From the NCBI GenBank assembly GCA_973895155.1, contig OZ316896.1, forward strand, positions 7,325,278-7,389,277: a stretch of 64,000 bases of DNA. Direction: 5' to 3'. Position numbers and translations under genes: made by a program. The notes under the pieces are model-generated. The model was not told the origin of the DNA and did not search any database. It saw nothing but the letters and a program-made list of their open reading frames with translations. Of the stretch, positions 14,233-51,248 are shown in pieces (position 1 is the stretch's first letter; each line of letters starts with the position of its first letter). The stretch is from Marsupella aquatica (taxonomy: Eukaryota; Plantae; Marchantiophyta).

Positions 14233-14589
14233 TCGAGGTGTTTACAAAAGACAGCAAACAAGAAACAGGATTTAATAACAGAAACTGGTAACAAGAAAAA
14301 AAACTGGTAACACAAAAATGGGTGGAAATGTTTTTTGAAACTTTTTTGAAACTTTTTTTTGAAATTTGTTTTTTGAGATTTTTTATTTTTTTTCGGTCGA
14401 CCAGTTTTTTTGCTAGCGCCCAAAGCTAGCCAAAAATGTTGCATTGTGAATTTTTTTTGGAAATAACATGTGTTAGGAGACATTTTTAAATTGTCATTTT
14501 TCCTGGTAACAGTAATTTTTTCCTGGTGCATATTAAAAACAGGAAAAAAAATTCCTGTTTACCTATTTCCTATCTCCATCGCTATACCC
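14233..14589. mobile_element. MITE-like insertion (357 bp) in the element C protease region
   Basis: Flanked by duplicated GGCATG; removal restores PVIVGMPFIT; shares internal GCTAGCCAAAAATG and TTTACCT(A/G)TTTCC motifs with 7273-7606. Confidence 0.8.
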
Positions 14590-27526: not shown

Positions 27527-28990
27527 CGGTGGTGGAGGGCCACTCCTTTTAAGGAGGGCGGACGTGGAGGAAGGAGGCGTGAGTGGGAAAGGCGGGCTCA
27601 GATCTCCAAGTTTAGAATTAGGATCAGGAGGCGGCCCTGACACTTAGCTTAGTGGGATTGCGGATCCACTGGTAAGAGCAACACTTGTGCTCCTGCCTCA
27701 TTGTACATAGGTAGATTACGATCAGGTTAGATTAGGCTTACGCTGCAAGGAATTGGGCGGATCCATTGCCAGGATAAGTACTTGGGCAGCGGGGGGTTCA
27801 GCACCTTCTAGCTTCCTTAGCAAGTTTTTCGTGCACCAGCAGGGTTGGGATCAAGTAATTAAAGAAGCTCTCGGTTAGTTATGTTGTGACCCTTGTGTAT
27901 ATTCATGTTTCCTCAGGGTCATTGTAGCGTGCGAGGAAACAGTAAAAAAATCCTCGCACTGGATCATTTTCTCCTTGGAATACCCAAAATTTGGCACGAA
28001 AACAACCTCGCTAGCATAAAGTGACTCTCGCTAGCCTAAAAGGAACCTTCTATTCCACCTATTTATTTAACTCCCGTTGGGTTTAAAAAGACATCCCAAC
28101 GATGCATTGGTACATATTACGTATTCCCCAGACACAAACGATCGTCGACGGCACCATAATTCAATATATAATTCCAACGTACATCAGGCCAGCAAAGTCA
28201 CTAGCCATAACTCTGCCCATCATTCTCGCACAAAATACTCCATGCGGTCATGACCCACACGACAAGCACTCATTAGAAAGCACGGGTTTAAACGGTTGCA
28301 GCAACAGCACTACACCGGATCATATCACGATAGAATCCAACGTCCCCTTCCTCATGAGTGAAGCGTGAAACGCAAAACCGCCGTTGAGGATCTGAGGCTC
28401 CCAAAATGCACTATATGTCATTCGGACCTCTCGACTCATCTCCATTCCTAATAGTGTCCTCACTCTTTCGCGATCGTCTTCGCATCGCAGAGTAACTTCA
28501 ATCGAGCTTGTGTTGTCATATCCACGGGCGAGGAGGGGATCTGGTGTTCTCGGGTGTGCCTCATTCTCGCAAAGTTTTTGTCGCACAAGGAGATGTAAGT
28601 TCAATACCGGGAGACCTCTTCACATCAAGTAGCATTATTGTTAATGAGAAAGTCTGGTTTTCCCAGTTCTATTTTCCTTCTCGTAGTTTTGCGCGTTTTG
28701 ACTCGATGAGCTTGGATGTTTTGAAGGTGACTGTTTCTATTTGGTAAACACAAGTGAGAAAGTAATCTGATACACTGCAGCGTTTGATACAGACAGAAAT
28801 GGCAAAGAACGATGACTCTTCCGCTCCAAAACCCAAATGGGTTCTGGAGGTCCGCCGCTACAACGCCAAAACTGACGGCCTAGTGGACTCGCCACCAAGC
28901 TCTCCTCCGGCAAGGAAGAGTGTACCCCCTCCGCTCAAGACTGGATCATCATCCAGTCGGGTCCCGCCTGTTGTCTGTGCTTCAACTCAG

Positions 28991-31900
28991 TGTGACGCCG
29001 CCGGTACGGCGGTTAATGAGTGATTCAGTCTAACTGCGCTCGGCACGCGCGTTAGGTGGGTCTTAGGCCGCTATTATTAGCATAACGACAGTATTTAGGT
29101 AATCATTAGGGGTAGGACATCATTAGGCAATAAGGGGGACTTCAGGTTCGGGCTGGCGGCGGGTCGCTATTCGCACACCCGGGTTACGAGCGTGGAAGGG
29201 CCCCTCCCTTGGGTCCGTATAACGAACTTAAGGAAGCGGCCACTGACGCACGCTGACTCAGACCGGCGGAGTGGCCGGTACACCACAAGCATGAGCGGTT
29301 TAGCCTATGGGCGTCGAGGAGACGTCGGGGATCGACAAGCCCTCAAAGTATAAAAAGGGAGCCAACCCTTTGTAGTGCACCAGTCCATCAGTCCGCGCGC
29401 CAGCTTTGACCCCAGCTCTCTTGTTCTCTCTAGGTCGCCACTACTATCTCCTCTGAGTGTCGCACACGATCCTCTCCAGTTCGGCCATTCGATTCTGGAC
29501 GCAGTTCCTATCTACCGGAAGGCACTTGGCCGATTCATTGAAACACGCCAACCCGCGCCGATACGAAATCGAACGCGAATACGAGAGAGCCATCCGCCTA
29601 GCAGGATGACACCACTACGTCCTTAACTTTGACTACCCGTCTCAGAGCGAGCTTTACCGACCAGCAGAGGTATCTGGGTACTTCTTCAACGGAGACAAAT
29701 ATATCGGGTTCTGGGAAGCATTGCTTCGGCTTCCGGACGAGGTCTTCAATATCCCGGGTACAATCGACCTGCAGCGACATCACTTCGACCACATCCCTGC
29801 CCGGGTTCGGCTGTCATTAACGGCGAGTCCAGTACCAACCGTTCGAGGGCGTCTACACTCGCTTCGGAGAACTTCTACCAGCACCTGCAGAGCTTCATGG
29901 GAACTCGGCCATCAACCAACATGACCAACTCAGCCGGGCCCGTACCCGTACCCTTGCCCATGCAGCCCCAGCCTCAACCTCAGGCTCAGCTTCAGCTTCA
30001 GCCTCAGCTGCAGCCTAGCCAAACCCCACCACCTATCACCCAGCCAGCACAGGTACGCTCCGTCATCAACACTGTGGATCTTAGCAATGACGACGAGGCT
30101 ACCCCACCCTTGACCAGGCGGCCCAGAGGAACAGGCGCTCGGGGGGCCGACACTATATCATCCCCACCCCCTACTCTGACCCCAGGAGCGGCCCCAACAG
30201 ACAACATGGTGATCGTGGCCGCCCCGGGCCCGTTACCAACCGCAGTGGCACTCCCCAGGCCCGATCGGGAGGATGGGGAAGTATCACCTTCCCCGAGTCA
30301 GTCACGGGGAAAGAAGAGGAAGGAATCCGCCACTGCATCCGGGTTACCGTTGGCCACGGTAGCCGTAGCCAAGGTGACGATGCACCGCATGGGGGAAAAC
30401 GTTCACAGCAACATCCTCCATCCCAAGCATGCAGTGTACCTGAAGACTCAGGGATTTGAGCACCTTACCTCCCTCCCCTGGAACACTTGCAGGTACTACG
30501 GGGAGGACATGACAGAATTCGTCAAGAATTATGATGACGTACGTCAACAGACTCGGCTGCGGGGAAGGAATATGTCCCTCACAGAAGAACGGCTCAAGAT
30601 GATCTTCGGGTTACCCGAAGGTGACCATCGAGTCGAATCACGGGCTCCCGGGGGCAAGGGGGCCAAGTACCAATCTTCAAATTTTCCCTCAGAGGGAGCA
30701 GTAGACAACGGGTTCGTGATGAGGACCTGTCTCATGCCCGAGATAGCGGAGCGGCTGGAGTTCCAAAGGTACGCTCTCCACATGATGGAACCCCGGGGGG
30801 AGATCTCCGCCGCCCAGGTTATCCAGGTCGAGAACTATCGACCTAGGAAATGGGCGTCGTACTTCGCTAAGAAATTCCATGAAAAGATGGAGAGGTGAAG
30901 GAAGACGCTGTACATTGGCGGGAAGGCGTATTTCACTAGCCACATCGAAATCATTCTGGAGTGGTACGCCCGGTTTGATCGACGAACCCTTCCCCGCATC
31001 AACGTTACAAAGCTGGTCCCAGCTAGGTGGGTTTTTCCGGCATTGGAGAGACGGCCCCAACCCGAGGCCCGAAGTCCAGTGGACACGCCAGCTTCACCCA
31101 CCCCACCTCCACAAATAGCTGTAATCGTAACCGAGGAGGCGCCGGAGGGGTTGGTCGTCGCAACCGATGCGACCCAACTAGCCGGGCTAAGTACAGAAGT
31201 TGGTACGGCAGAGGTCTTACCCGAACCCGGGTCTCCCAAGGACCCACCGGTGGCAATTTCGGAGAACCGGACATCGCTACAGGAGGACACTCCAGCCCCT
31301 TCCAACGTTATGTCCCCAGGGCTGGACGTCACTGCCCCGGCCCCTGCGCGTGTTGACGTCTGCCCGTGCCCAAATCCGGACAGGCACAACTTGGACCACC
31401 CGGAACTCTTCGTACAGGGTACGTTTCTGAACGGGCTTCTGGGAGATTTCTCTCATCAAATTGCCCGGGATACCGGGGAGTTCATGGCCCGGAAGGTAGC
31501 CTGTTTCTTCAATCAGGAGTTGGTTGCCACCGTAAAGGCAGGTCGGGCCCAGTCAGAGGCCCTTCAGAGGATAGAGCGGTACCGGGTGGAGTCCGTGTAC
31601 CTAAAGAATGAAGTGGCGGCTCAAGAGGCTGAGCTTCTGCAACTACGACCCAAGGTTGCAGCCGCCGATGAGTTGTTAGCAAAGGCGTACGCTCTTACCG
31701 CCCTAGCCGAGAAGCAGGACCAGCTGGCGGCTAAACTGACGAGCGACGCCCAGCAGCTGGAGGAGGCATGTCAGGAGGCAGCAGAGGAGACGGACGCGGC
31801 GAGGCGAGAGAACGAATCTCTGCTGGACCAGGTCCAGCTCCTCAAAGCGGACAATGACAGGCTTCGAAGGCAGCGGGATGGCCGTTCCCATTCGGGCGGC

Positions 31901-32820
31901 TCTGGCAAGCGTGCCAGGCATTAGCGGCGGAGTAGGAATAGATTAGGATTATGATTGGCTTAGTCAGGCTCTTGGGACAGGCACCTGCCTTAGGTACAGC
32001 AGCGCTGCCCTGCTGTCCAGCCTGCGTAGATTAGGATCTTCTAATAAGACACAGCCGTTTTCCGGCCTGACTGTCAGCTTAGTTAGGACCTTAGTCAGCG
32101 AATCTTCAGTGAGAGGACACCCCGTCCCTCGGCTCTTAGTATTTAGTGCACCCCTCGGTAGAGGCAGGGGGGTTTTTAGTTTCAGAGTCGGACATCCGCG
32201 GGATATGCGGGGAGTCCCGACCTCTGGGAATGACAGAGTACCAAGGGGAGGGGGTAGGACTAAGCTCGTCGGGCGAGTGCGGAGCCGGGCTCCGTTGTAG
32301 TGTGCACCCTCGGCCTTGAACCTGTTCATTCCAGGGCTGTCGGGTCAACTAAGTGTACGCATATGTTCCCTTTGTAGTAAAATCCTTTCCCATCATTTTC
32401 TTTCGTGTAGATCGAGATTGTATGCATGTGTGCGCATATGTGTGTGGGTTTCTCGTATATGGGTGGCAGCGCCAGGCCGAACGCACTACCCGAGACGTGC
32501 ATAGGGTGCAGCCTACGGGTAAGTGGTTGCGAGCACGGGTTGAGGACCTATATCATCGAATCCGGATCGAAGGCGGACAGCATGAAGGCTTAGAAGCCCT
32601 TAAGCCGGGGTCGATCCTGCTATCAACTAAGGTACGTTCCGGCGGCGGAACACAAACCATACCTAGGAGGTGTCCGTATTTAGCAGTATGCACACTTAGC
32701 GCTAGTTTACGAGAATAAGGTGCATTACGTGCTTCCCTTCCTGCCCGAACCCTCAGATTTACGAGGGATGTGCCCATCTAAGCTGAAGTCTGAGTTAAGG
32801 CCGAAGCCTACGACGTGACA
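28991..32820 (+). mobile_element. Solo LTR E (3830 bp) carrying a long ORF
   Basis: TGTGACG...CGTGACA termini; perfect TSD CTCAG; TATA-like TATAAAAAGG near 29349; no terminal direct repeats, PBS or pol. Confidence 0.88.
29897..31924 (+). pseudogene. Accessory ORF of LTR E, 676 codons with one internal stop
   Basis: 29897-30898 and 31043-31924 share a frame and 30899-31042 is open; P/Q-rich N-terminus, LPW...EFVKNYD...IFGLPEG domain, C-terminal coiled coil. Confidence 0.75.
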
Positions 32821-33567
32821 CTCAGCGACCTGCACCGCCAAAGGAAACAACTTCAAGCATTGTTTCCAGAGCACCAATGTCTTCTCGCACAAACCGGAAG
32901 AGAGAGGAAGAGGAGGAGGAGGAGGAGGAGGAGTCTTACTGGAGGGACATCAACATACACAACTACTGGACATCCGATATCCTAGCTTCCTCCGATTATG
33001 ATACGGATTCGGACACAGATTCAGACGCCTACAAGGCAGCATCTCCATGAATAGTACCCTAGACGACAATCACTCTACGTTGTGAACCCCTGTAGTTTTA
33101 CAGTTAATCTCTGACAAGTCCGTGACCTTACAATGAAATGATCGGTAGGACACAAACATTTTGTCAGTTACAGATGTTTTGATAAAGATTGGACACATAT
33201 CTGAATAAAGCTTCAAAAGTTTTTCCAATTTCATGAGTGCATACCTTGCTAGCAAGATCGCTAGTAAATATTGCCTACCGGTACTTGAGTGATTTCCGTT
33301 GTGGATGGCATGAAATCACTCCGTGTATGTTAAACTTTCACAAAAGTTTGGTCGAATTAAATCTTTATGTGTTGTTAATTGTTAGCGACATCACTAGTTA
33401 AAATAGGCAACATTTAGGACCCACACTTATTATACAGAAGATCCTCACTAACATACCATCAACATTCTTATTACTCGGAAAGTGTCCATTGTTCAGGTTT
33501 TGAAACCTGGAATGCGACAAAAACAGGTACTCTTAAACGTCCACCTTAACGGATAAAAGAGATGGAC

Positions 33568-36500
33568 TCAACTATTGTGTAATGGAATCAAACTCCTTAG
33601 TTCACCAATAGTCAGAATTGGCTGTTTCACAAGATTGTCTCTCTCTAGATTAAGCGAAAACTTATTTAAGTACACCCAGAGGAGATGTTTACAAGACATG
33701 TAGGGTCTTCCTCGCGTGTGCCTCTTGTAGAAGTCATCACAAGAGCAACAAGGGAAGCAACACACTTGAACCCAATAGTTGTGTGCAATTCTAGAGTCAC
33801 TCTCGTGAGTAGCGATGAAATATTGCCATCCCCATCCGTTTCCTATGCAAATCTTGTCACTTCCAATGACTCTCATTTGTTCGACAGTTGCAGATCAAAT
33901 GCGTTTAAGAAGCTTCGGGGTGTTCTGGAAACGTTGCCGAATGCCTTTCCCATTCCGAGTCTTCAATCGACGATTTGGATAAGCAATGTCAACCCTTTTG
34001 GGGAAGGCGTTCACATCAATTTAGAGGTCAAGACGACTTGCAGGAGAGAATGACCTGATTGGTGTCGCATCAGAGTATGATAACCCTATGATTTGAAAGC
34101 CATTTCGAAGGAAAAAATCAATCTCTTCAGGGGTCAGACTAGTTCCTCGTTGGACTTGCAGTGCCTCAGGTGGTTGCGGGAGCTGGGCAAGAGTCCTTCT
34201 TCCACCTGTTTTATGGCACTTATTATTTGGACAAAAGTACAGAAGCTGACGATGTGGGGAGGACAACCTCAATCCATGAATGGCCACACCAACAACTCCA
34301 GTCCGGAATGCCTTATATCCAGTTTCCTTGATCAGATTATGGCATTCTTCTCTACCAAAGACACTCCGATCCACTAGTCCGTTGCACACAGGTCCACTCC
34401 CTTTCCCACTTTGTCTCAAATGCCAGGTCCCATACGAAACATCAACCTCTTCAATAAAAGGGATCCTTCGGGGGGCATCCCGAATCTGATCCTGACTATT
34501 TTGAGGAGATGGTATTTCTCCAACATCATTTGTAATCGGTGTTCCTTCTACATCTATTCCAAGGCTTCGTTCTTCACCATCATCTGAGATATTGATAACT
34601 TCACGAGGGAGAGCATCTGTCTGGTGGGTGGGACAGTTTTCATTATCAAGAATACACGACGGTCCCCCAAGGTCAGAACCACTTCTGAAACTACTTAATT
34701 CAGTGTACAGATTCCTTCTTTTCAAGCTTGACGGAGATGTTATTGTACGCAATATTTTATCATGTCGATGAGAATCATTCTCATGAATAGACGCGGAAGC
34801 ATTACCCTTACATTGTCCGAATATCCCCATGTAAAGGCTCTGTTCTATAGAACTCATACTTTCCAGAGGATTCAAATAGTAGATTGGATTCCTTCTCGTA
34901 GGCATCCAACGATCCCATAGTATTTTTATTGCGATAGGCCAGCTCAAATATTGTAGGACCATTACCACGATGACATCCTTCCATATATGCGGTGAACGCA
35001 ACAATCTGTCCAACTGCTCAATTCTGATAAACTTCACATGCTTCCATCAAACCAATTCTCTTCTTCGGTTGGCACAATCGCATGGAAGCATGAGAAGATT
35101 CAGATCCTGCGCAGTTTGGCATCAAGGCAAACTCTTTTGCAGTTTGTATCTGCCACAGAATCAATGTTAGTCAATGTATTCAGGCTAGCGACCTCGCTAG
35201 TAGAAAGCACACTAGTTACAGACTAGCTAGGGTTAAAACAACGATATTTAGGCTAGCAATCTCGCTGGCTTAAATTTATCATAAATGATGGATAAAACTT
35301 ACCACTCGAATAAAATTGCCCCATTGTCTCCATCGCACAACCCACCATGAAATCCAACCTTGAAGGGATTTGAGCTTTGAAGGATGACAATTCCCTTCTT
35401 TCCACCATTTTTGAATGTTGTCTGCAATTCTATACGCTTCGACGTAAGTTGGGGCAATCCTTAACTTCTCCCACATCTTATAATGCTCTGCATGACACCC
35501 CTCCTTGATGCCATCCAATGTGTGTCTCCTCAGGGACTGAGAAAAATGGAAAGCATCGCTGTGCTCTTTCATAGGATTTCGAACACCACCAAAAAAAACT
35601 CGTCGTACAGCAATCCAACCCGCCTCTGCATTGTCAGCTATGAATCCTCCAATAACAGGATTATGCACTCCATTCTCCGATGCCACATCTACCATCAATC
35701 GCCATGCAGTTTCAAGGGACTCGGTGTCTTCGGCTCTCAACTCACAAGTAAAAATTGTACATAGAGCCTGGTAATTGTGGTTATAAACATGTGCACTGAA
35801 TGTCAACCATCCAGTAGTGATGCGATGCATCACGTCAAAACTGACCCAAGCACCTTCCAAAACTCTTCCAGACTCCATGCTCCTCAAAATGTCCACACCA
35901 GATCCAGGTCCGTTTGTACTCATTTTGAATACATGCGCTCGATCATTCTTATTCCCTTGACTAGGAAAAAGGTACCTTTGCACAAAAGGGAAATTATTCC
36001 TTGACTGCATTTCACGAAGGGCATCAAGTTCTCCTTTTTTGGGATTATCCATCTTGATACTCCGGAGTATAGCTTGGAACTTGGGAGTAGTGGAAACCAC
36101 ACCTATGGAACTCCAGATTTCCATCTATTCTTCTCTCGACAACTGAGATGATGATTCCGGATGCAAAAGTGAGACAAGGCTGCCAATGGACTGGTTCCTC
36201 ACAAGTGCTGGAGTTGATACTGGATTCAATCTATGGACCCCTAAAATGACATCTTACGCAGTCTTTCTTGCTGAACGAGATTTCCCTTTCCAAACTGGAT
36301 GGTCATGGAATCCCATATGCACAACCAACCTGGACATATGCATTGAAATGTGACTCTACAAACCTGGCTTAGGGTACACGTACAACAGTTTTGCCGGGAA
36401 ATTTCAAATACAAAGCGGCCGCTCTTCACAAAATCCACAGACAATGTCACCCTCACTCACGTGCTCCTCTCGGGGGGTTAACTAAGTGTATATTTTGGGG

Positions 36501-37768
36501 TACCACATGCGATCCTAGCCTAATATAAATAGACCTATTTTATAAAGAAAATATTCCAAGAATATTCTCTATTTTCAATATGAATAGCCTATTTTATTTT
36601 ACAAAAGGTATATATTAAAGAATATTCTATAAACATGAGTTTATAATACATTCTTTTGCCTCCTACGCTTTTTAATTTTTTTTTAATTTCTACCAAAAAT
36701 ACCTGTTTTAGATCGCACGTGGTTCCTAAGATTTTTTATAGTCAACCCCCCAAGGTGCTCCCCAAGACGAAAGATGTCAGTCAGTAACCCTTTCCCTCTA
36801 AACGAGCAAGCATTTTTCTCATTCGTATGCTTGAACTTCCGACATCCCAAATTTTGGCATTCAAGTATTCCAACACATCGGACTTTTGAGGCAGACCAAT
36901 GGAACCTTGGCTTCAGGTTTGCAGACATAGTGACAAGTCGAGTCCACGGATAGCCGTCGTTCTCTCGATCCATATCTTGAAGACCTCCTCCGCGTCCGGA
37001 CCCTTCGATGGGAGGAAGTTCAAAAACAACGTTACTATTGTATGTCGATAGCAGACTAGGAACCTGGCATTCCTTCCACTAATTCCCTCTTCAAAATTGT
37101 GCAAGTTCACTCACGCCACTTATATTGAGAAAAGCGTCATAAGCACTCATCCGATACACTATTGGCATGGTAAGCACATCCATTTTCTTGACCAATCCTC
37201 CGGGTTCCGAACCACCTCCTGACTTGGCTGACCCACAAGATGTGTCCTGCCTTAGACTATCAAGAGATATTTCAATGATATCCGGGGCCATTTCTTTTGT
37301 AGGCATTTCCAGATCAATCATACGAGTAGTTTTTTCTTCAGGAGGAGAATCCACATGGTCCAGAATGATATTAGGAATGCCATCTTTACTTGACACAACC
37401 TCTACATGAGATCCAACCTTCAATGTCCAAACCCTATTGGAAGTACTACTTTTTTCTCTCAACTCGTGACTACGTGTTCTATTTTGACAATACAACTCAA
37501 ACAACTTGTAGATGATATCACCATCTAGAAGTCCAAACCGAGTTGTAAGGAATGACTCTGTCACTGTCACCTCCGATGAACCTGGTGTGCTAGGAAGCAC
37601 AACTACATCTCCCATCATTCTACGCTCCAAAATGACTTTGCAAGCCATCTCAATCGTCCTAGACAAAATTTTAGATGACAACAAAAGAAGATGACTATGC
37701 TTAGGATCGTCTACATGACCCTTATGATGAAGCTTTAATCTCATTTCATCCCAACGGAAACAACCCAT
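33568..37768 (-). pseudogene. Mutator-like transposase: GCM-like zinc domain, DDE core, C-terminal SWIM finger
   Basis: DGYPW...CVGILECQNLGC...CGFC...HMGFHDHP; WVSFDVM, FIADNAEAGWIAVRRVF...AFHFSQ and, after an intron (~35150-35302), GSESSH; CSCDDF...CKHLLWV. Several stops and a MITE. Confidence 0.82.
36469..36754. mobile_element. 286-bp MITE with 8-bp TSD, copy 2 (inverted relative to copy 1)
   Basis: Near reverse complement of 12239-12524; TSD GTGCTCCT/GTGCTCCC. Confidence 0.92.
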
Positions 37769-38332
37769 TGACCAAATTGTCAGAGAGTTTCCGTTGATGT
37801 GACCGTTGTTTTGTTTTTTACTACTTGTATCGTCGGAGTCCTCATGCTAGTGAGATCTAGCATATAATGACACGCTTTATGGATATATTTATAAAGATTT
37901 TCCTAGATTTTATGTATATATAGACTGCAGATTTCAGGCCAGCGATCTCGCTAGCCAAAAAGTAATTTCAATGGTCTTTAATTTTACCATTGGGATTCCA
38001 TTCATAATAGTCAACGGGTACCAACTACGACCAACACCTATCCTGTTTTGTATGGATTACATACTCCCGGTCGTGAGAGTTGTTCTTCGCATTTTCCCAA
38101 AAGTACAACTAGTGATCTATGCCAGGAGATTTCTGTTATTCCTTCCTCGGATTCGACATCGTCTTCTGTATTCATGACTGTACCTCTTTAGGACTTCATC
38201 TGGTCTTTGTAACAGTCTGTACGGCTGTCCGGTACTGATTGTTGTTGATGTTTGTCACTCGTGCTGGGATTGCATCCTCTGGACAGGAACACTCTTCAGC
38301 AAAGTACACTCTTTGGCGAAGGGTTTTATTTC

Positions 38333-41300
38333 ATGGAGTCGTCGTTGTCTCTAGAGAATATTTCTTTCAGAGGATTGTTCCAGTCCAGGGAGTCGACTAG
38401 AAGAGAAACAAGGTCTATAGCGAACAAGAAGGTGCTAGCATCGGGATTGAAGACTCCAAGACGACCCAAGATGGTGATAGCAGTAGATGTTGTGGCACCG
38501 GTGTTTGATCCGAGCGCTTCGGAACCTTATACTGTTGTCATAAACCATCATCTTTACTCTTTCGGAGTGAATGAGTTTGGTTTTTATCTGGCTCCCCCTT
38601 GAATTCCTCTCTGCAGGATGAGGAACATGCAAATTGTTCGATCTCTGTAGAAGGATTCAACTACGATAGACACACTGAAGTCCGAGTTCAGGACCCAGGG
38701 TTACATTGAAGATGCGCCTCGGTTTTATGTACAGATGACCAACGAGGATGGAGAGCTCCAATTGTGTATTGATGCGATCTGTGAAACTTTGGATGACATT
38801 TGGGTGCTTCAGAAAGAGGAGTTCGAACGCGAATGTGATTCCCATGTATCTTTACACGTCCTCAAAGACAAGATGTTCTTTGTTTTTGATGGAAACCATC
38901 GACTGTATTCTTGGACTCAACTTGTGGAAGAGCATCCGGAAGATATTAAGTACCATCTACGAGTTGTTTGCAAGATTTTTAAGGGTGATAAAAACTCATT
39001 TGTTCAGATCGAGTCGGCAATGCACGCATTGAACAGGTGCAATTTCTAAGTATAACATTTTCTTGAAATTTGTGTTTTAGTTAATCACTTTCTGCTAGCA
39101 ATCTCGCTAACATGAAAATTCTCTGGCAAGTTGACACAATGTCACGTTGAAAACTCCTGGGTTTTGGAGGCCGAACGGGTCCAAAAGATTCTGAACAACG
39201 ACTTGTCAGTTTACAAGGATATCATCGATGCTGAGAATTACAAACTTTTCCAGCAAAAGATGGCAAACATGCGGAAGGCAGCTTGGTATTCCAAGAACAT
39301 GACGCTGGATGCTTGCACTTATATTCTATCCGCTGCTAACATTGCATCTTAGACGGAAGACCTCAAGAAAAAGTTTGCTTTGAAGGAAGCTCAAGGGGAG
39401 CCCCTGTCGAAGGCCTCACAGGAGTTAGCAATGCAGGAGATGATGAAGGAGCAATTGGCTGATTGGAATGTGAAAGTTCCTAAGATCGGTCCATTACTGA
39501 ATCCAAAATTTGGTGACTTTTTCAAGAAATGTGTAGAAATGCATAACTACTGCAAGAATGAGAGAAAGGAGGCCCACAGAACTGATGACAAAGGACGAGG
39601 AAATGTTTCTTGTGGTCTTGATTGAGCTCGGTTGTTCACAGGGGTGACGTCCTTATCCCCAGAACTCCGATGTACACTCCTGGAAGCGTAGTGTTGTCCA
39701 AAGCTTTGAAATAAGTTCTTTCATCCTAGTCAATTTTCAGATAGTGAAACGAAGCTTTGGCTTCACCGCTGGGCAATGTGGGAGCAAGTCGAGTCAATTG
39801 CGTCTTCCCTCATGTCTAAAATTGTGTTTGAGGTTATGCCTACTGTCCCAAAGTCCCGGATCCTTAGTTCTTCAAAAAAGACCAAAGCTTCGCTCATCCT
39901 TGACATTGAGGAGGATTTTGAGGATTTCCAGACTCGTGTTAAGACTCATTTCTTCCTTCAAGCAGATTTGGCCTCCCAAGACAGGAGAGAAGATCGAGAT
40001 TGCATTGTTCCGAAGGAGAGCAAAGAGATACACGTATCAATTTTTTGTAGACAAAGAAGTAGCAGACAAATTCTACTGGTGGTCCTACCCAGCTTGCTTC
40101 TCCCCATGGATTGCAGGAGTTAAAGAGGATCCTATAGGTGACAAATTTGGGGATTATTCTATGTTTCCTTGCGAGGGATGTGAGGCTCCAAGGAGAATGA
40201 GCGAGTGGGAGATTCTTCACTGTCCATGGTATTTGGACTCGGACAAGTGGTCTGTCACCTTCAACACTGCAGAGAAAGCCGCTCTTCATATGATCAATCA
40301 TGGATTCCTTCCGGAGTCTTACATCTCGGAGTCCAAATTGGCACCCACTGACGCTGAAGTTGGTGGTTGCGAGGCTATGGAAAAAGGCTTGTCTTGGTGT
40401 AGCTGCAATAGTGGATAGGAGTCGGTCTCGAAAGCCAAGGAAAGGTGCAGTGAAAGACACATCCAAAGATGGGTCCCAAATATCGGGAAAGCCAAGTAAG
40501 TGTGTCAATGTTTCGCTTCATTTTCTTTTCACGATCTTATGTGTTTCTAAAGAGACAGATTCTAATAGCTATTTTTTGACAAAGAGGAGGAAGGGTACTG
40601 CTTCTGAGAGTTTGAAGAGCGGGGCAGATGATGGAGTGGAACCTCAGTCCCCAGATGTCGAAGTAACAACAAAGAGCACAGTGGATTTGGGAAGTATAAA
40701 GCGTCTGAAATGAAAGAGGAATGTCCAGATTCTGTCGGATTCGGATGATGATGAAGTTTCAGTTGCTCAAGGCGTCGCTCGGATGTGTGGGTTGAAGATG
40801 GATGGCTAGAGACATTTCCTTGCTCGCAGTAATTTGATCGACACTGCGAATTCTATCAGCGTAAAGAAAGTAAGGCCATCTTGGATGGGAGATGGAGACG
40901 ATGGATTTCTGGGATGTCCAACAGTGTCGAATGCCCAAACCCTATCATCATTAATGGCAAGCCATGTATGATGGGATTGGAGCACATTTGGGATTCATTT
41001 CTCTTCCAACAGGGCATAGAACACGCGTTATAGACAAAGAGGTCCTGCCCTGGAATGTGTGGAGCGAGAAGCTGCCTTCTTACTTTTTTGGAGTCACGAG
41101 ACCCATGCTTTCGGACGAAGGATATGTGGCTGTGCTTCATAGCTTGGATTTCAATCACATGCGACAAATATTTATTGCGGTTGAGCAAAAAAACAAATTC
41201 AAACACGTACAACAATATACAGTTTTATTATCCACTCCTTTATGGAGAGCCGATATGGATATTGAGGTACATATTACTGAGATATTTTGATGCGGTTTTA

Positions 41301-41941
41301 TGCTAGCAATGTCACTAACAAACATCTTATCATTTTCAACTTGAAAAAGGTTCATTTCCATCTTTGAATTAATGCTAGCGATCTTGCTAACAAAGTTTCC
41401 AGGCTTTTCTAATAGAATATCATTCTTCCTTCAGGTGTGCACTCTCATTCTGGACGTCTTCTGTCGAGTGGAATTTAATGCAAAAATTCCCAAAGACCCT
41501 GCCTATGTTCCTTTGACGTCTTCGGAAGATGCCAGGCATAAATCAATGCTGAGCGTCTGTTACCCAAAGATTGACCCCTATCCAACAGCGACCGTTGCTG
41601 GATCAAAAAGGCTATCAATTGGCTTCATGCAAGCCGTGATGGAGTTCCTCACAAAGCCGAGAGATATCGTCCTTGACTGGACTATGTGCGATGGAAGCTC
41701 ATTTTCCGTAGGGGAATACTCTGGTCGGTTCGTTGTTGGTGTTGAGGACAGGGACATTCTCCATTCGTGTGCTCAGAAAGGTTTAACAAGCGTTCTGGAG
41801 AGGCACTCTAGCAAGTCCAAGATGATTAAAGATCAGGAAAAGAAGGGTAATCAGGATGCTGGGTCTGATGATGAGTTCACGATACCAGGAGATGAACAGG
41901 CTCGACCTTCAAGCGAGAAAGACAAATTTGACCTAGAGTAA
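38333..41941 (+). pseudogene. ParB/Srx-like domain fused to an N6A/N4C DNA methyltransferase-like domain; intron-containing
   Basis: IPLCRM...LKSEFRTQGY...FFVFDGNHRLYSW (DGNHR at 38888-38902); AHLGFISLPTG...MLSDEGYVAVLH; FMQAVMEFLTKPRDIVLDWTMCDGSS...GRFVVGVED. Introns ~39037-39129, ~40496-40583 and 41267-41434; may extend to ~42380. Confidence 0.72.
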
Positions 41942-44079
41942 AGTACTTGGCCTCTTCTGATGTCGGACTCCCAATTTGGTTTCTTTTGTTTTATTCATTT
42001 TGTTGCTCTTCCTCAACTGATGCCAGTGGTTGCTTCAATGATAGGAGGGTGGATTGGTTTTTTGAGGAGAGATTTTGTCTTCGAAAGGAAGTGGAGGAAT
42101 CCATCCTGGTTACTCCAGAGAAGCCTTTCACTCTTCCGTGCTATGCTGAGAAGTCGGCGAAGGAGGTTGATGACGCTCCTGTGGTCTTGACCTAGGAGGC
42201 GAAAGGGCTTCGCTCAATTAGAGGAGCTCGTAGATATCTGGATTGTTCAAGGGTTATTGACAATGAAGCAGGGACAGTTAGCCAGTATTTAGATGAGTCT
42301 GCCGAGTCAACTGAGAGAAGACCAGTAGCGATCCTAGTAGAAGTTCAATATCTGATGATTCAGTAGATGAGGTTTATGACTAATGCAATAGCTTCAGTGT
42401 TAAACTGGCTATACTGCTTACCATCGACTCTTATAGTTTTTTTCTGTGTGCCGGTTTTTGGATGTCCATACTTTTAATGTATAATGAATGACCATGTTCT
42501 CATGAAAGTGCCTGCTATTCGGTTATTGTTTTCCAATATCGTTGTGCGCAGAGTCAAGTATGGAATGCATATGACAATCATGCATGAATTTCCGTAGTTA
42601 TAACACTTTCATTACTTTGAGAGAGGGAAAATAGTGAAATTTGGTTGTTTTTTCCATTAATGTGGTCGTGAGTTCGATCATAAAATGTGCCTCGCTAACA
42701 ATGCTACCTCGCTAGCAAAAATTCCTGTTTGCTTGCACCGTAAAATTCCTCGTTCCCTCATACCTAAGAGATGAATAGAGTTGGCCTCACGGCTTAGTTC
42801 GCAGATCTTGTGTATGAGAAATACTGTTTGTATGGCAAGTGCATGGTATAACTCAATCAAAAGGAGTCATTTTGCTATTTGTGTGTCGCATTAACTTGTT
42901 TGAAGATTGCCCACATCAACCAAGAAGGGAGTAAGCAAGGTAGTAAGAATTGGATGTGTCGAGCTGAGAGAGGTCTTAGCGGCTTACCCAAGCCAGTTGG
43001 GGATCATTCCGGTGGCGGAATCCAAACATACCTAAAGGAAGACCAGGAGAGGAGGACAAGGGAAGGCATAGAAGAGGCCGGCTACGTATCTCATGACCCG
43101 ATGAAGGATCTGTCTAGTATATGTGTGTAAAATGTTAGTAGAAGGAAGTTAGCAGCGTCCCATGCCGCTAAGCCGCGAAACTGGCCTCGCCAAGAGCAAA
43201 ACCTACGGGAATTGGCTTGTGCACGGGGTTTTTTGGGTTCAGGGAGTCATGGGATGCACCACAGAGGATATCGTGCCAAAAGATTTCGGCTTAGGAATGG
43301 CTTTTATAGGGGATGATGGGCGAGGCCTCCCGGTTGGATTGCGTGCATGCTGACTCGGAGGGGCTGCTTGGTTGGATGGATTGAGGTTTGGTGATTGGGT
43401 GACTCATCGTCACCAGGTTTGGTGTTTGGGTGAGTCACCAGGCTTGGAGTTTGGATAAGCCTCGCTGATGGCAGCTAGCTCAGGCTGGATGGTTGGGTTT
43501 CCAATGCTACTTAAGACTTGAGCCTCGGCTCATTGAGGTTGGCGGTTGTCTATTGAGATCTATTGAGTTTTGTTTTGTGAGTTTCGCTCTGTTCTGCGGA
43601 ACTTGACTATTGTGCGGCGGGTTTGGAGTTCTGTGCGAGTGTTGGATCCAGGTGTGGAGTTTTGGATCCAGGCAGGGATTTCTCAAGTTTGGAGCCTTGT
43701 CGATCCAGACGGGGATTTCTTGAGTTTGAAGCCTCGTTGGTCCAGGCCCAAGTTTTGTGTGAGCTATTTTAGACTAGTGGAGTAGCTAGTCAAGTTTTGG
43801 TTTTGTGAGCTAAGGAGGAGAGTTTTTCCGTCAGATTTTGAGTAGATAGTCACTCGAGGAGTTTGGCTTGACAAGTTAGAGGTAGCGGCCCGCCGTAGGG
43901 CCAGCTACCAGACTCTTGTGGGCAAGCTTACTCGAGGGCACCCATTGTAACCTTTGTGAGAAAAGTAAAAAAAATAAAGGAGTGAGAGTTCGCTCCAAAA
44001 AGTGCTTGTCGCCTGTCCCAATCGCAGCCAGAAATGCGGAGTTTGCCCGAGGAGCCCCTAACTTTAAGTCCTCGCGACA

Positions 44080-45941
44080 ATGTCCACCCCAAGACGTGCC
44101 GCCACTTGTCCACTTATGAAGCAGGCGGTCGTGCCTGTATCCACCAAAGCAATACCCAGATTACCATTAGAAGTGACATTCACAAAAATCAGCTTTTCAA
44201 GATCCATTGTCTTAATCTTAGGTACCTTCTCTTGCACCAACCCTTTCTCTCCGACAGGAACATCCCCTACAAGCACCTCGTCAACTACTAAGGGTTTGGT
44301 TAGAGCGATACTTACCTTAATGCCCTTCTGCCCTCCATCTCTGCTCGGATTGCCACCCTTCAAGGGGTAGTCCTTACTTTGATGGCCCATGGCACCACAT
44401 GTGTAGCACAAACCTTCAGCCGGCCTCCGCTCCATGAGCGCCCGCTTCTTTGCTTTCTGCACCGATGAGGTTCCTTTAGACTTGAAGTTGTTGGCCTTAC
44501 GGTTGTGCTTTGCTTCTCCATTCTGGGGCTGAGGATCCAAACCACCGGCCCCTGCCCCCTTTGACTGCTTGCGCTTATTCCCGGGACCTTTTGCTTTCCA
44601 AGTTTCCCTCTCAGATCCCTTGCCACCCACCTTCGCCAAGTTTGGCCAGTTATTCACCAACGTAGTGGCCTTGTCAAAGGCGTCAAAAAGCGTTTTAAAC
44701 TCATGACTCTTTTCCTATAACTTTTCCCTGAGCAACAGCGGGAGCTTCACTATAAAGTTGTGAAGCTACAAATGAAGGGTCTCCTGCCCCGCCAGGATAC
44801 ACGCCAGCTGGTTCTGGTAATAAGTGATGAACTTTTGGATATCACCCCTGAAGCTCATTTCTGTTACACATTTTTGCGCGTGCCACTCTGGGTTTAGTAG
44901 TGGTGACATGAGCACGGAGACCCTCAACCAAGTTTTCCCAAGTAACGGCAAGGAGGAGTCCTCACGTGACTTCTTCCAAGACTTGTACCAAGTCAAGGCA
45001 TAGTCCTTCAAGTAAGGACGGCTGCAGTAGCCCAAGTAGAACGCTCAACACACGCTTGGAGATGAATCTCCATCGTGGAGAGCTAACTCAGGAACTTTTG
45101 TCCACTTTGTTTGTAGGCCCGTTGTAAGCTAGAGGAGTCGGTAGCTGGTTCACTTGGAAATACTCCGTCCAACTACCATTCCCCCCTTGGGACGCGTCGC
45201 ACTCTAACTACCCAGACTAAGTAAGTACTTAATCTAGGCACCCTTGTTGTGTTCCAATTGCTCATAAATGAGTTGTTGGTCTTGAGTCAACGGACCCAAA
45301 CCATCGTTAGCGGCTGGGCCTCTACGGGTTGTATGAGGATGGTCCTCCAACCGTCTTTCCTTTGCGGGCCACTTGTCCTTAGGTTCCTAGTTTGTGGATT
45401 TTGGTGACATCCCCCGCGACTTGCGGGCACTATGACCTCCCGGGGCTATGGCATCACCCGCATTGCTCTGGTTTTGCTTGGTCAAATTGTCCACGATGAC
45501 GTCCGGCTTGACATCATCCTCTGGTTCCGCATCCAACCCTGAGCTCAAGGTTGGGATCCGTTCCTCTTTTGGGTCTTGACGCTCTTCCTTTGATTCAGTC
45601 TCTAAACCATCATCGCTTCCATCTAAGTCGGAGCCGTCATCGCCTGACCCATCCTCTGGAGGATTGACCACCTCCTTCCCTTTAAGTTGACGACGCTCTA
45701 TACTTGATGTGTTTGCTGTGGTGGTCGACGGTTTGGCCTCCACGTCCTCATTGTCTTGCTTGTAACGCTCATCTAGGGAAGTCGACCCATCCTCCTTCTG
45801 TTCTTCTTGAAATTGGGCTCTCCCCTTGGTGGGAGGAGCCTGCTTGCCACTCTTTGATTGAGTGTTCTTAGCCATGTCTCCGGTAACCAAATCTGCCCGT
45901 AGTCGACCCGCTGGGCACGTGGAAGCAGTTAGTCCTTGCAA
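44080..45941 (-). pseudogene. Chromovirus gag and protease N-terminus
   Basis: YLKDYALTWY (gag); knuckle GLCYTCGAMGHQSKDYP; ALVDTGTTACFIS protease site. Confidence 0.88.
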
Positions 45942-46006
45942 AAATCCGTTAAAATTTTTGGATTCAGACCTAGCACAACCCCGGCCCGGTGTCTATGCCA
46001 ACAATC

Positions 46007-46018
46007 GCTCTGATACCA
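46007..46018 (-). promoter_or_regulatory. Primer-binding site for tRNA-iMet
   Basis: TGGTATCAGAGC on the minus strand, directly inside the 5' LTR. Confidence 0.9.
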
Positions 46019-46020
46019 CA

Positions 46021-47062
46021 AGTGGTGGACTTTGCCACCCAACGCCCTCACCAATCCCAACACTCACACCTAAGTGCCCCTGGTGCCCAAACGCCTCCAC
46101 GAAATACCTCAAGCAAGCAACCTAGTGCCCCTTGCATCACCAACGGCCCCTCCCATATGAAGCCGCACTTGCTCTCTAACGCGACCGCTATTCAATGGTC
46201 CTCACTGTCTGCACAAGCAACCAAGCGTCTCGGTAAGTAACCCTTCAGGATCTAGATCTCCCAAGTCTAGCATCCTAACTCAAGCTCAACAGATTTTGGT
46301 AAGTAGGTCAGCGATAGGTCTTCCCGATGCCATAAGCCGGAACCCAGAACCGACGTCCACTGTTCGTCTAGAATAGCTCCTTCCTTGGGCGTAGCCCGGG
46401 TTTCCCCTCGTACCTATCCATCACCAACTGACCGCCCTGCCCCCAAGACATGTTCATGGCCCAAATAGCATAGCTTGTCCTAAAGCTTGTCCGGGAGCTT
46501 GTCCCAACACGCCGGGACCAGAACGGCCCCGAATTTAGCAACTAACTCCCGGTTCTCACCCCACTGATGGTCTAGGGACCAAGTGCCATTGGGACTCAAC
46601 CTCCATGCCTACTTGGCCTTGCCTCCCCAACGCAAGCTCCCTTGAGAGACTGAACGTGGCTTGGCTGCTATTTTGGCAGGATTTGGCTAGTGGACCAAAA
46701 AACACCTGCAAACCTCAAGAACCTACAGTGCTCCTTGATCCAGCTGAGCTCAAGAGGATGTAGCCCTCCTTGAGAGATTTCCAACACACCCAAGAAGTCC
46801 CCCAACGGACTTCTCGTTGGGAAGTTATTGTCATTTTTGTTTTGTGTTTTCCCTTAGTGTCGCGATCGCCGCGGCTCACGACTTTGGCTCGCCCTTAGCC
46901 CCCAGGGAGACACCACTCCCCTCATATATGCTTCTGGAGACTTGTCACCCCCAGACCAACTTTGATCCCAAAACTTTTGGTCCCCAACCAGGACCCTATC
47001 CTGCATGTCTGGGCGCGCCACCAACTGGCAACGCCCACAACTTCCTAGTTAGGCGTCCCGTG
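46021..47062 (-). repeat. 5' LTR of the chromovirus, outer part missing
   Basis: Adjacent to the PBS; ~46525-47062 aligns with ~58921-59458. Confidence 0.8.
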
Positions 47063-48347
47063 ATGTCTGCATTTAAGGCATTTGCATCCATTGTTCCAGT
47101 CCGTTCCTGTCTGCGTCTGGTCGTCCCAGTCCGCACGCCATTGTTCATGGGAGAATGGTGGGCTGCAATAGGGCTAGTGATTTTGCTGGCCTCATGTATG
47201 TATTCCTTTCAACTTTTTCCTGATTGTTCCTTGGATTCGGATGTTGAAAAGAGGGTACAGATTTTGAATTATTCCTATCCTCGGTTCATGTATGATGCTC
47301 ACTTGTGGCCTAGCCTTCTAGTGAATCCAATACCTCATATCCACAAAGCTTCTGTTCAGTTTAGTTTTTTTGAATAAATTGAACACTGATACTTATGTTT
47401 TACAAACACTTGTTGTAGCCTGGCAAGGGTCATTTCATGCTAGCGAGGCACTAATCATGAGATATTTTGGGTTATGCAAGAAGAAAATGTGCCCGTGAGA
47501 ATAATGTTTTTGATGTTGCTATATGGTGAATGCAACTTTCAGTATTTTGTCTTATTCAAACTTCTTTTGTTATGCATTTTTATTTGAATGTGTCTTACCA
47601 AGGTGCATCCCTTGTATAGTTTAGATTTCAAATTTATTCTGGCACCCCTCTAATTTAAAAAAAATCTTTGCTATATTTAAGATCATCCACCCTTTAACAA
47701 AGCTCGTGTGATTTCTAGCCCTTATTCTCATGAGTGCAGAAAAAATGATCTAAATAAAGTGCACACCTTGTGTCTTTAAGTACTACTCATGGTTTTGTGT
47801 CCTAAATTTATGGTTTTAATTATTTGGAGTGTCATTAGCTAAAGTAAGCACATAAGTATCTCTACTCTTGTACATTATGTGCACATCCCAATATCATAAA
47901 CTTAAACTTTCACTTTCCTATTCATTATTATTTTTCTTTACATGTGTAATTTTACTCTTGTACCTTATGTGCAAAAGTTCAAATATCATAGACTATATGT
48001 CTTCCTAGTTAATGTACTGTTTATATTTTAATTAGCACACTTTAATTAGAACACTTGCATATCGCTACAAAACAAAAATAAAATGAACATGCCATATCTC
48101 GCACGCTACAATGACCCTTACATAGCTTTGTGAACTTGCCTAGTTTAAAAGAGATCACGTCCCGGTATGGCGCTTTTTATATCATAGCTTTGGAAACTTG
48201 CCTAGCTTGAAACAGTGCTGCAACATTAGAACGAGCTCCCGCCATTTCCTGGATTTCCCGATGCCCAACCTACTCTTGTGGAGCTTTCAAACTCTGCAAA
48301 GCCATAGCGTCTCGGTAGCGAATGCCGGAAGAAGAAATCAATCGGCT

Positions 48348-51248
48348 ATGGCGGATGAAGGACTCGACGGAGCAAGAGTGGAAGGGCTGGGCGACGAGGC
48401 AGAGCAAGGACGAGAGCGAGAGGACGAAGATGGCGTTCGACGGAGCAACGGGGCAGCTTCTCTGGCCCGTGTCCCTGAAGCAGAGAGTAGTACGAGTTGG
48501 CCGACGACTTCTTTTGGCGACGGCGATGCTGGAGAAGCAGATGATCTTCATAGCACGGACGTCGAGCTTCTTAGAAGGGTATGGAGTAATGAAAAAGCGG
48601 CACCCGAAATTCTGCGGTACGAGGCTCAGTTGGTGGAGCGAGTTCAAGAGCAGATTCTGCTAATGGTGTGTGTTTGTGTATGTATGCGTGCTGCGTGTTT
48701 CCAGTTGGTTCTGCTGCTCTTCTCTTCTTGCTTGTTGCACTGTGCCGTATACATGCATGCCTAGGTGTCCAGACGAAAGCACTTCGCTGGCATGGATGTA
48801 AATGGAACCTCACGAAGATAACATACACCAAACGAACTCTGTCATTCGGCCAATTGTTCAGGCAGGATCGAAATGCATATCGTGAGCGGTTGAACGGTTT
48901 TATGGTTTCTGAAAACTTATTTCTGTCGTGTGGCGGTGATGATGTAAACTTTAGGAGGAAAACATAGCAGCGTTTTCCACCGAGATATCTGATGAACTTA
49001 TGCTGTCACTGTACCGGATGGACGTGAATCGCGCTCTTTATCTACTGCGATCCTATCTACGGACGCGACTCAGTAAAGTACCTTCATCAGATCTTCTTTG
49101 TGACTAACACAATTGCATGTCATGCCTTCTTTGAATATGTCATCAATACGGTAGCTTAATGTCATAAGCAGTTCGTAGTACGAACCTAACCTGAATTCTC
49201 TGTGGGACGGATGGCAGATAGAACGGTTTCCGATTCACATTGTTAGTACTCCGGATACGAGCGAGAAACTTTCTGAAAGCGAATTAGAGTATGCCTTCAG
49301 GTGAGTGGTGTCTTCAATCCTGCTCCTTTGGAGTCCTTTATAAATCTTCGTTCTCCATCTATCTCAGCAAAGCAAAATGATTCCTTTTGCTATGGGTCTT
49401 TCGTGCTTAGTGCAAGGCAAAGAAGTCTTTCATGTATGCACGCTTCGTGGAAAATGCTGGTTTTTCGTATGGACAGTGATACTTATTTCATTTATTTTAT
49501 TTATCAGGGTCTTCATTTTTCTTTAATCATGAATATTCTTTGATAATTTGAGCTCCTGTATTCTTTTTAAAAAACTGGAAAGATGTTGATCATAGGTATG
49601 GAGAAGCTCTCGCGAAGCACTTTGAGCAAACTGTTTTAAACCGACTACCAGAAGAGTACAACTCGATGTCGAAACAGTACACTTCATCCGAGGAAGGCGA
49701 CATGAGTATCCATTTCACACAATGCAATTAATGAAAGGATGCATCGGAGAGACAAGAGTGCGGCACTGAATGAGTCAATGTTTGTTTTCCTTGTTGCGAA
49801 ACAGCATAGTGTCTTTCATACCTTGTGATTTATTGGAAGACTTCACTGATGACGGAATTGACTTGAATTCCAAGGATTCTGGCGTCCAGAAAAGGATTCT
49901 GAGTTTAGGGTCCCGTTTAGGTCACGGCATTGCAATCACAGGTAAACAACCTTACTTCTAATTCCACAGTACTTGTCGTAACCGACGACCATTGAAGTTG
50001 TCATTCGCATTATGCACGGAAAATTCTAATTAGTTAACGTTGATACGAGCGAGAGAGGACTCTTGCTCTCATCCCCTGGCTACACTTGCATTGATAATCC
50101 TGCTATAGGAAAACTAAACTAATGCACATGTCAAGATATTCTTTGATTGAGTATAAAGAATATTTATGAAAGTCTCAAACTTATTTTCCTGTGTCTTTTA
50201 AGGAAAGCAACCCCGCTGCCGCTGAACGGTTTGAAACCTGGTCTTCATGCCTCACCTTGAGGATAGGATGATGGAACAAAAGATGTTAATAACTGCAAGT
50301 AATCTTTTTGTTTGGGTTCTTCTGTAGAAATACATCCATTTTCGATTCGATGACTTCTTATGACCTACACAAGGAAGGCAACTTGACTTGTGAATATTAC
50401 TCAACAGATCTCTAGCTCTTGGCTGTTAGATTGTTGTGGGTTGCAAATTTCCCTGACAAGATACCAGTTCCAAAACCTCAGTTGGACACGTTTGTTTTCT
50501 GCAAGAGCAAAGGAGCTATTGGCGCTTTCCAGCTGGACGACAAGTAAGTATCTTGAAGTGGATTTGCAGATAGACATTTTAGCGCGGTTCAACATCCTGG
50601 TCCTTGGCTGTTTGAGGTTTCCTAGATCCCGAGGTGGACTCAAGGCTCATGAGGCAAAAATTACTTAATCACCTAGGACACCTGTTGAGCTTGCTATCCT
50701 GTTTCTGTACATTTCAAATACTCATTGGGGTGCCTTTCTTTTCTTTCGTTACTTGCGAGGATTTCGACTCTCGCTGGGTTTGTCTCTGAATTAGATGCCT
50801 TTCGTTTTCCCTGTCTGTAGGACTGTAGAATTACATAGCAGTAGTTTATTGTAATTTAAATGTTCTGGAGTCAGTTTTGGACTCTTTGTGCAAGTTGTGC
50901 AAGCGCTTGAGTTGCGTTACTAGTCTGTGGTGAAGCTGAAGCTGATCAAATGTCACTCAGTTTTATGTTTCTTATGTGCTTGTATAAGAGAGGTCTAAAG
51001 CGCTCAGTATTGAAGGAAAGTTCATCTTCGTGTAGCGCTCCTATGTTTGCTGTCTGGGTAGCCCCGATTTAGACTTTACAATAGTGAGAAATCTGACAAT
51101 TAGGGGATATTCATGGAACTGATTATGCTTGATATTCTTTTGTAACAGGGGAGATGAAACGGTGGATCTTATGAAAGATGATTTGCACATCCTTAGATAC
51201 AAGCCAGTTAGGAGGCTTTTAGAGGCAAACAAGATAGAACTTATTTAA
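48348..51248 (+). CDS. SLD5: DNA replication GINS complex subunit SLD5 (GINS4), 269 aa; exons 48348-48665, 48955-49077, 49218-49300, 49596-49705, 50468-50543, 51149-51248
   Basis: All GT-AG introns, 810 nt in phase; TDVELLRRVWSNEKAAPEIL, YRMDVNRALYLLRSYLRTRLSKIE, PKPQLDTFVFCK, DLHILRYKPVRRLLEANKIELI. Confidence 0.95.

Follow-up and report, generated by a model that had tools for sequence, protein, structure and literature searches.

Analysis of a 64,000-nucleotide stretch of the liverwort Marsupella aquatica (assembly GCA_973895155.1, contig OZ316896.1, positions 7,325,278 to 7,389,277 of the forward strand; hereafter the window, with positions counted from its first letter) revealed a four-exon gene at 38333-41941 (+ strand), which joins a probable ParB/Srx-like domain to a methyltransferase-like domain and is the decayed second gene of a Mutator-like DNA transposon. 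That it belongs to the transposon as an accessory gene under selection appears almost certain. For the intact protein of about 1200 amino acids (aa) we favor, with a rough probability of 0.45, a role as a self-recognition and anti-silencing factor that would bind the palindromes of its own element without methylating DNA.

A Mutator-like element with a broken fusion gene

The Mutator-like element (MULE) spans 27916..42751 (14,836 bp including nested insertions). In three of four sequencing runs (X1, X2 and X5, from two studies) contigs join 27905-27912 to 42751-42758, and the ends set independently by these joints are flanked by a 9-bp target site duplication, GTTTCCTCA at 27907..27915 (+) and GTTCCCTCA at 42752..42760 (+; 8/9 identical to the left copy), in line with the 9-11 bp of Mutator elements. 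The terminal inverted repeats are short and imperfect, with only 19 of 27 terminal bases matching between the left end (27916..27942, +) and the reverse complement of the right end (42725..42751, -); Mutator-like elements without long terminal repeats exist. Head-to-head with the ParB-methylase gene lies a broken MULE-type transposase gene (33568..37846, - strand) with an RNase-H-like core at 35279-36466, an intron at about 35128-35290 and a SWIM-like finger recognized by eye at 33568-33894 (-). Pfam gave no match on the transposase open reading frames (ORFs), and an Atlas comparison placed the protein at 0.94 to a MULE cluster, sharing 165 of 256 features, with all ten top family matches in one clan. 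The MULE neighbour, the contig joints and the target duplication bear out the transposon-borne nature suggested in the initial annotation of this DNA.

All four exons of the ParB-methylase gene lie on the + strand. Exon 1 (38333..39036) encodes the ParB/Srx-like domain with the motifs IPLCR..VR, DGNHR (38888-38902) and MHxxN and contains two stops, followed by exon 2 (about 39130..40495) with a conserved middle region, four stops and one frameshift, which is 41% identical to exon 2 of the metagenome locus L002 (E 7e-53) and to which the Riccia protein P0154 also aligns. Exon 3 (40585..41266; 72% identity to the relative P0181) encodes an acidic linker and then the first half of the methyltransferase, including motif IV (SLPT, 41000-41011), and is interrupted by two stops and two frameshifts; exon 4 (41435..41941) contributes the S-adenosylmethionine (SAM)-binding motif I (DWTMCDG at 41675) and motif II (GVED). 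Gaps of 31 and 56 residues relative to P0154 and the Calypogeia protein P0176 mark intron 1 (93 nt) and intron 3 (168 nt), the position of intron 1 coincides with the endpoint of many database fragments, and the call of intron 2 is based on GT/AG ends only. Because homologues are collinear along the entire gene (P0154, E 5e-40; P0176, E 1e-45), we conclude that the ParB-methylase fusion is real; both domains are also present in one annotated protein, P0154, which at 1207 aa is the longest of the named family members.

The window gene is a dead copy of a large family. Eight stops interrupt the aligned frames (38600, 38648, 39350, 39623, 39689, 39707, 40711 and 40807), at least three frameshifts occur at about 39952, 40895 and 40965, and the acceptor of intron 1 is apparently broken. 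In contigs of related copies, C replaces T at at least four of the eight stops (38600, 38648, 39350, 40711). Each run places 92 to 1128 contigs on the gene, and these are 80-99% alike, suggesting many divergent copies, with contig depth not taken as copy number.

A search with the ParB exon retrieved 161 clusters at 50% identity, 150 of which were listed; the members looked up by name belong to Riccia sorocarpa, Calypogeia fissa and two Adiantum species, with no algal protein among them. The exon was also found in 41 metagenome loci, probably from mosses, of which 30 were distinct after removal of 11 redundant loci ahead of locus counts and tree construction, and methyltransferase exons follow downstream in L003, L015, L017, L026, L033, L034 and L036. 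No relative was detected among 73 candidate viral contigs. The ParB exon is under purifying selection, with ratios of nonsynonymous to synonymous substitution (dN/dS) of 0.04-0.12 in all six pairs among four close loci (simple counting method), and the motifs and the position of the first intron are conserved over 150 proteins. These values largely refute, for the ParB exon, the view that the gene is passive cargo, namely a captured prokaryotic ParB-methylase now decaying amid palindromes that are unrelated repeat debris. Most copies seen are indeed broken and quasi-palindromic repeats are common in the window, but the motif and intron conservation speaks against mere cargo, as does the recurrence of transposase linkage and orientation: in two of six distinct loci with at least 6 kb of upstream sequence (L011; L022-24), a related transposase precedes the gene in head-to-head orientation. 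Overall, we judge the cargo explanation highly improbable.

Methyltransferase fold and probable ParB/Srx-like domain

The methyltransferase domain was modeled from P0176, not from the window copy (mean predicted local distance difference test score, pLDDT, 55). Comparison of this model with CcrM gave a Foldseek E of 2.4e-8, and a structural search returned MboIIA (Z 12.7; root mean square deviation 3.9 over 188 aligned residues), CcrM (12.1), PvuII (11.5) and N4CMT (9.9), while a sequence profile independently found M1.HpyAVI (E 2.5e-4). The Pfam family PF01555 matched in 19 of 28 rows (best E 2e-7), with the individual scores seen lying below the gathering cut-off; on the window's own exons Pfam gave neither a ParB nor a methylase match, and a word-based search with exon 4 gave no match. 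Judged from the predicted structure, the C-terminal domain thus has a beta-class N6A/N4C methyltransferase fold (PF01555). All three motifs singled out in the initial annotation, DGNHR, FISLPTG (with SLPT at 41000-41011) and LTKPRDIVLDWTMCDGSS (its D at 41675), are present in the window gene, and motif IV precedes motif I, as is typical of the beta class. The claim of that annotation, a spliced ParB-like and beta-class amino-methyltransferase fusion, therefore stands, given the collinear homologues and the significant methyltransferase fold.

Two phage methylases carrying DLPY and DIPY set the register of the window's motif IV by alignment, agreeing with it at positions 1 and 3 and at a Trp downstream. 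Motif IV was compared across 30 sequences (22 pattern-matched proteins, 18 of them outside Adiantum and Calypogeia and mostly from Riccia; the window gene; P0181 and P0194, which come from one cluster; and five loci), with P0095, a PAS kinase, excluded beforehand as a false match. The variants read DLPS, DMPT, DLPT, DMPS, DMSS, DLSS, DFPI, DVPF, FLPN, SLPT, DYPE, DIPE, DVPS, NVPG and NVPS, so that the aromatic residue is kept in a single sequence (DVPF, one Adiantum protein) and the family does not conform to the catalytic pattern (D/N/S)-x-P-(Y/F/W) of PF01555 enzymes. SLPT itself recurs in another copy. In contrast, the SAM motifs of PF01555 enzymes are retained: in motif I (D-x-x-x-G-x-G) the first Gly is present in 22 of 23 and the second in 21 of 23 regex-matched proteins, and an acidic motif II is present. 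The window copy carries Cys in place of the first Gly (DWTMCDG) where two clade relatives have Gly. The alternative raised in the initial annotation, a dead reader or a mutation of this copy, is thereby resolved motif by motif: the aligned sequences place the motif IV deviation (29/30) at the level of the family, and the Cys of motif I seems confined to the window copy. The methylase is therefore likely to be disabled throughout the family, as judged from its motifs.

Conversely, the intact protein might be a working amino-methyltransferase whose active site departs from the canonical one. Targeted by its N-terminal part, it would write N6-methyladenine (6mA, in the D-x-P clades) or N4-methylcytosine (4mC, in the S-x-P clade, as in the window) on its own element, a mark that would block 5-methylcytosine (5mC) or flag the element as active. 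Such activity would account for the complete beta-class fold, for the match of the phage DLPY and DIPY enzymes to motif IV (positions 1 and 3) and to the Trp that follows, and for the conservation of the SAM motifs over liverwort, fern and metagenome loci, and the first-position Ser recalls TSPPY of MpDN4MT1. The aromatic residue of motif IV in amino-methyltransferases stacks on the flipped base. In 29 of the 30 sequences another residue (T, S, E, I, N or G) takes its place, and position 1 varies as well (D, N, S, F), which leads us to consider activity somewhat unlikely. The same proposal has been made for an Ectocarpus protein in the relevant passages of PMC12477816. Several Riccia members (P0152, P0154, P0155 and relatives) carry the UniRef label 'Trimethylguanosine synthase', an identity we rejected as the fold evidence favors a beta-class DNA methyltransferase.

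The N-terminal domain is likely ParB/Srx-like, based on modeled structure and on matches that are consistent and each individually weak. The window exon was modeled with a pLDDT of 89, and in the VIA structural search the top seven of 31 rows were ParB/Srx-fold proteins (Z 3.2-4.6, 69-75 aligned residues). Foldseek likewise ranked ParB/Noc first but without significance, at E 0.5 or worse in PDB and E 0.08 in BFVD, where the best viral match was a 479-aa phage protein named DNA methylase. ParB/Srx proteins are defined by a conserved upstream Arg and a G-x-H/R-R box, and both are found here: within DGNHR, G is conserved in 138/146, N in 143/146, H in 135/146 and R in 118/145 rows, and the upstream Arg of VR in 79/95. 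Searches of the exon gave no ParBc match in Pfam, only chance matches in PDB sequence searches with the exon or its profile, no match of the ParB parts in PHROGs, and one match (E 2) in a phage tblastn search. The structure and profile comparison envisaged in the initial annotation thus returned a significant fold for the methyltransferase half but no individually significant match for the ParB half, whose assignment rests on the motif box and the consistent top ranking of ParB folds.

The two domains are separated by a middle region of about 600 aa. A homodimer prediction for P0154 residues 165-600 gave an uncertain fold and weighs neither for nor against binding. The nearest Atlas clusters to P0154 residues 165-690 are fungal DUF3723 proteins (0.83-0.84), which we note as a lead only, a common ParB-like ancestry being conceivable; 31 Starship papers are listed as naming DUF3723.

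Palindromes and proposed function

The element contains repeated copies of an 18-bp palindrome, GCTAGCGA-NN-TCGCTAGC, which matches 11 times in the window at up to three mismatches against 0.05 expected, a ratio inflated by the derivation of the pattern from the window itself. Nine copies fall within the element, starting at 28188, 33248, 33381, 35184, 35252, 37938, 39094, 41302 and 41374 (span 28188..41391), and were recovered again de novo; all nine are non-coding, compared with about 35% of the element's own DNA (rough P 7e-5). Partial sites occur near both ends, at 27998-28037 on the left and as half-sites at 42692 and 42709 on the right. Related loci carry palindromes of their own: AACTTTTG-N4 is common to L011, L017 and L026 (6, 7 and 9 copies; clade support 99), and AGGTGCCT-N4 occurs 17 times in L007, which shares one palindrome with L010. 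The L007 array, with 15 palindromes at 1754-3941, about 105-290 bp apart and upstream of the gene, and two more at 5678-5836, downstream of exon 2, is the clearest candidate for a binding array. A de novo scan of 14 loci detected arrays in L007, L016/L017, L026, L033 and L038; the L011 array showed later, with a given motif. An array at L024:19099-20060 repeats a quasi-palindrome 12 times, about every 71 bp.

In the reading we prefer, the N-terminal half of the intact protein would recognize the two-fold symmetric palindrome, its ParB domain would bind a nucleotide, and the methyltransferase fold, as a pseudo-enzyme like METTL14, would grip DNA or read its methylation state. Occupancy of the introns and of the shared promoter region would then keep both divergent genes expressible despite host 5mC silencing, comparable to VANC for VANDAL elements. 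We infer every step from binding onward, starting from the element and its gene layout, the methyltransferase fold and probable ParB fold, the loss in motif IV beside retained SAM motifs, selection on the ParB exon and the palindromes.

Several points weigh against this proposal. On the protein side, conservation extends to the first residue of motif IV (D/S/N), its proline and the SAM motifs, and DVPF persists in one Adiantum protein, so that catalysis may still occur. The ParB matches are weak, reaching at best Z 4.6 and, in Foldseek, E 0.08, no helix-turn-helix was identified in the protein, and the family box reads GNHR instead of GERR, the box of the ParB CTP (cytidine triphosphate) clamps of ParABS systems. 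On the DNA side, no array was evident in 8 of the 14 loci scanned de novo (L003, L011, L015, L019, L020, L034, L036, L039), 9 kb separate the ParB match from the L024 array downstream of it, and quasi-palindromic tandem repeats occur in three of eight control tiles outside the element, although these satellites have 22-26 bp periods, unlike the dispersed element sites. A transposase of the window type was not found upstream in four of the six loci with at least 6 kb upstream; one of the four has a weak match to another transposase type, described below, and the other three yielded nothing, with L033 outside the Pfam scan. Moreover, since palindromes are inherited with the whole element and kin share sequence, the transposase is an equally possible binder.

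This last point leads to an explanation without any epigenetic role, in which the protein would be a transposition cofactor like MURB or TnpA, and it or the transposase would bind the palindromes and join the weak ends. The short, poor terminal repeats (19/27) and the partial sites near both ends fit such a function, and ParB proteins are known to bridge DNA. Most palindromes, however, are internal, intronic and distant from the ends, and ParB accessory genes stand beside unrelated transposase superfamilies in algae and possibly, on a weak match, in L019. A portable self-marking module fits this association with several superfamilies better than a partner of a single transposase, and we consider the cofactor role unlikely. 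The L019 match (5549-5734, -) is to PF21787, a TNP-like RNase H (E 0.018), and is located on the other strand upstream of the ParB gene; the gene may therefore also ride P-element-like transposons. This weak match was the only one given by Pfam on 32 of the 97 short upstream ORFs listed for L007, L011, L019, L020 and L026.

A bolder extension of the anti-silencing proposal, which we regard as doubtful, is a miniature parS-ParB system in transposons of liverworts, ferns and probably mosses. Here, a nucleotide-gated clamp would load at clade-specific intronic palindromes and spread, and the methyltransferase fold would shield from 5mC or write 4mC/6mA via an unconventional site. If true, this would represent a prokaryote-derived, sequence-specific epigenetic switch in plant nuclei.

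The element has been further disrupted by insertions. A repeat fragment at 36469..37080 (right limit approximate) sits in the transposase gene, its part 36469-36764 being 93% identical to 12228-12524, and a probable nested repeat insertion at about 28900..32800 is indicated by unrelated ORFs and a much higher summed contig depth; the gap in the cover of run X5 over about 29.1-32.4 kb did not enter this argument. A short acidic ORF within the element at 32799-33050 (+), convergent with the transposase, may represent the 3' portion of a third gene of the element, interrupted by this nested insertion. Beyond the right end, 47148-47201, 47413-47500 and 48098-48118 are inverted matches to the left end of the element (21/21 at the tip, 73-81% in the inner two blocks), with a palindrome copy at 47173 inside the first block. 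As the right end itself, the blocks 47148-47500 and 48098-48118 were rejected, as they lack a target duplication and the joints put the end at 42751; they are probably the end of a related element. The remaining window contains decayed long terminal repeat retrotransposons at 1042-2085, 6690-8778, 11612-18187, 19008-23238 and 43273-46400, recognized by eye from ORFs for integrase, reverse transcriptase and gag-protease, with a zinc knuckle and a protease matched by Pfam at 44067-44714. Short-period tandem repeats (22-26 bp) lie at 4701-4932, 9082-9389 and 58597-58890, and at 48340-48700 (+) is what we take to be the start of a host gene resembling the GINS subunit SLD5, with no Pfam match on the exon.

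Relation to known systems

Transposon accessory proteins of this type have already been described in algae, a precedent missed in the initial annotation. The accessory protein of Sola1-1_Ec32 in Ectocarpus, as described in the relevant passages of PMC12477816, has 1104 aa, combines ParB with an N4/N6 methylase, lies opposite the Sola transposase and was proposed to bind and modify its own element; similar green and red algal proteins are cited there. The plant family shares the domain pair, the size of about 1100 aa and the strand opposite the transposase, a likeness by description, but it resides in land plants and here in a Mutator element instead of a brown alga and the Sola superfamily, and those passages hold neither the motif analysis nor the palindromes presented here. 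In Bostrychia Plavaka elements, PAG3 is a ParB-2-oxoglutarate (2OG)-oxygenase beside inverted-repeat arrays and PAG2 a methylase-SET protein (bioRxiv 10.1101/2025.02.11.637652, sections on these genes). Common to both systems are an accessory ParB domain with adjacent inverted-repeat arrays and accessory genes that shift between transposon superfamilies, whereas in Bostrychia ParB is fused to the 2OG-oxygenase, the methylase, with SET, is a separate gene and the host is EnSpm/Plavaka.

VANC of Arabidopsis VANDAL is likewise an accessory gene of a Mutator-like element, and its family-specific motifs, according to the passages concerned in PMC5735166, sit in non-coding regions and introns and were gained via tandem repeats. 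These motifs are, however, 8-9 bp long, in one orientation and not palindromic, no similarity of the plant protein to VANC was seen, although no direct comparison was made, and VANC activity is demonstrated where ours is inferred. With M.MboIIA, CcrM, M.PvuII, M1.HpyAVI and phage ParB-methylase fusions the plant family has fold, motif order and SAM motifs in common, and it differs in a motif IV without the aromatic residue, the middle region of about 600 aa between the domains and a spliced gene.

The family was also initially seen as a plausible reservoir for the 4mC methyltransferases of Marchantia and bdelloid rotifers. MpDN4MT1 (bioRxiv 10.1101/2021.02.12.428880, whose accessible text makes no mention of ParB) and rotifer N4CMT (8s9n) do share a prokaryotic-type beta-class fold in a eukaryote, but both are active host enzymes, MpDN4MT1 has TSPPY against SLPT in the window, and N4CMT ranks 11th, below ten bacterial enzymes (Z 9.9 versus up to 12.7). 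Nothing supports the family as the source of these enzymes. In the sections consulted, Iyer 2016 (PMC4738411) describes a ParB-HTH (helix-turn-helix)-fused Dam family and inactive DIRS1 methylases, with no land-plant family there, and ParB goes unmentioned in a 2026 preprint about regulators of transposons. The literature searched, with subscription journals, including the journal version of the Marchantia paper, outside it, contained no description of a land-plant ParB-methylase transposon protein.

Thus, the architecture and the idea of self-modification are, from the parts of these sources cited, already published for brown and red algal transposons. What is new here is a Mutator host in land plants, a degenerate active site and palindromes that go with clades. 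For the algal ParB-methylase proteins, from organisms that are hard to work with, the function is so far a proposal; the plant family brings the architecture to land plants, where a full-length annotated protein and clade-specific candidate sites allow the idea of self-modification to be put to a direct test. A pseudo-methylase kept under selection throughout a family would be unexpected and, if active instead, the family would supply plant genomes with 4mC or 6mA from a transposon.

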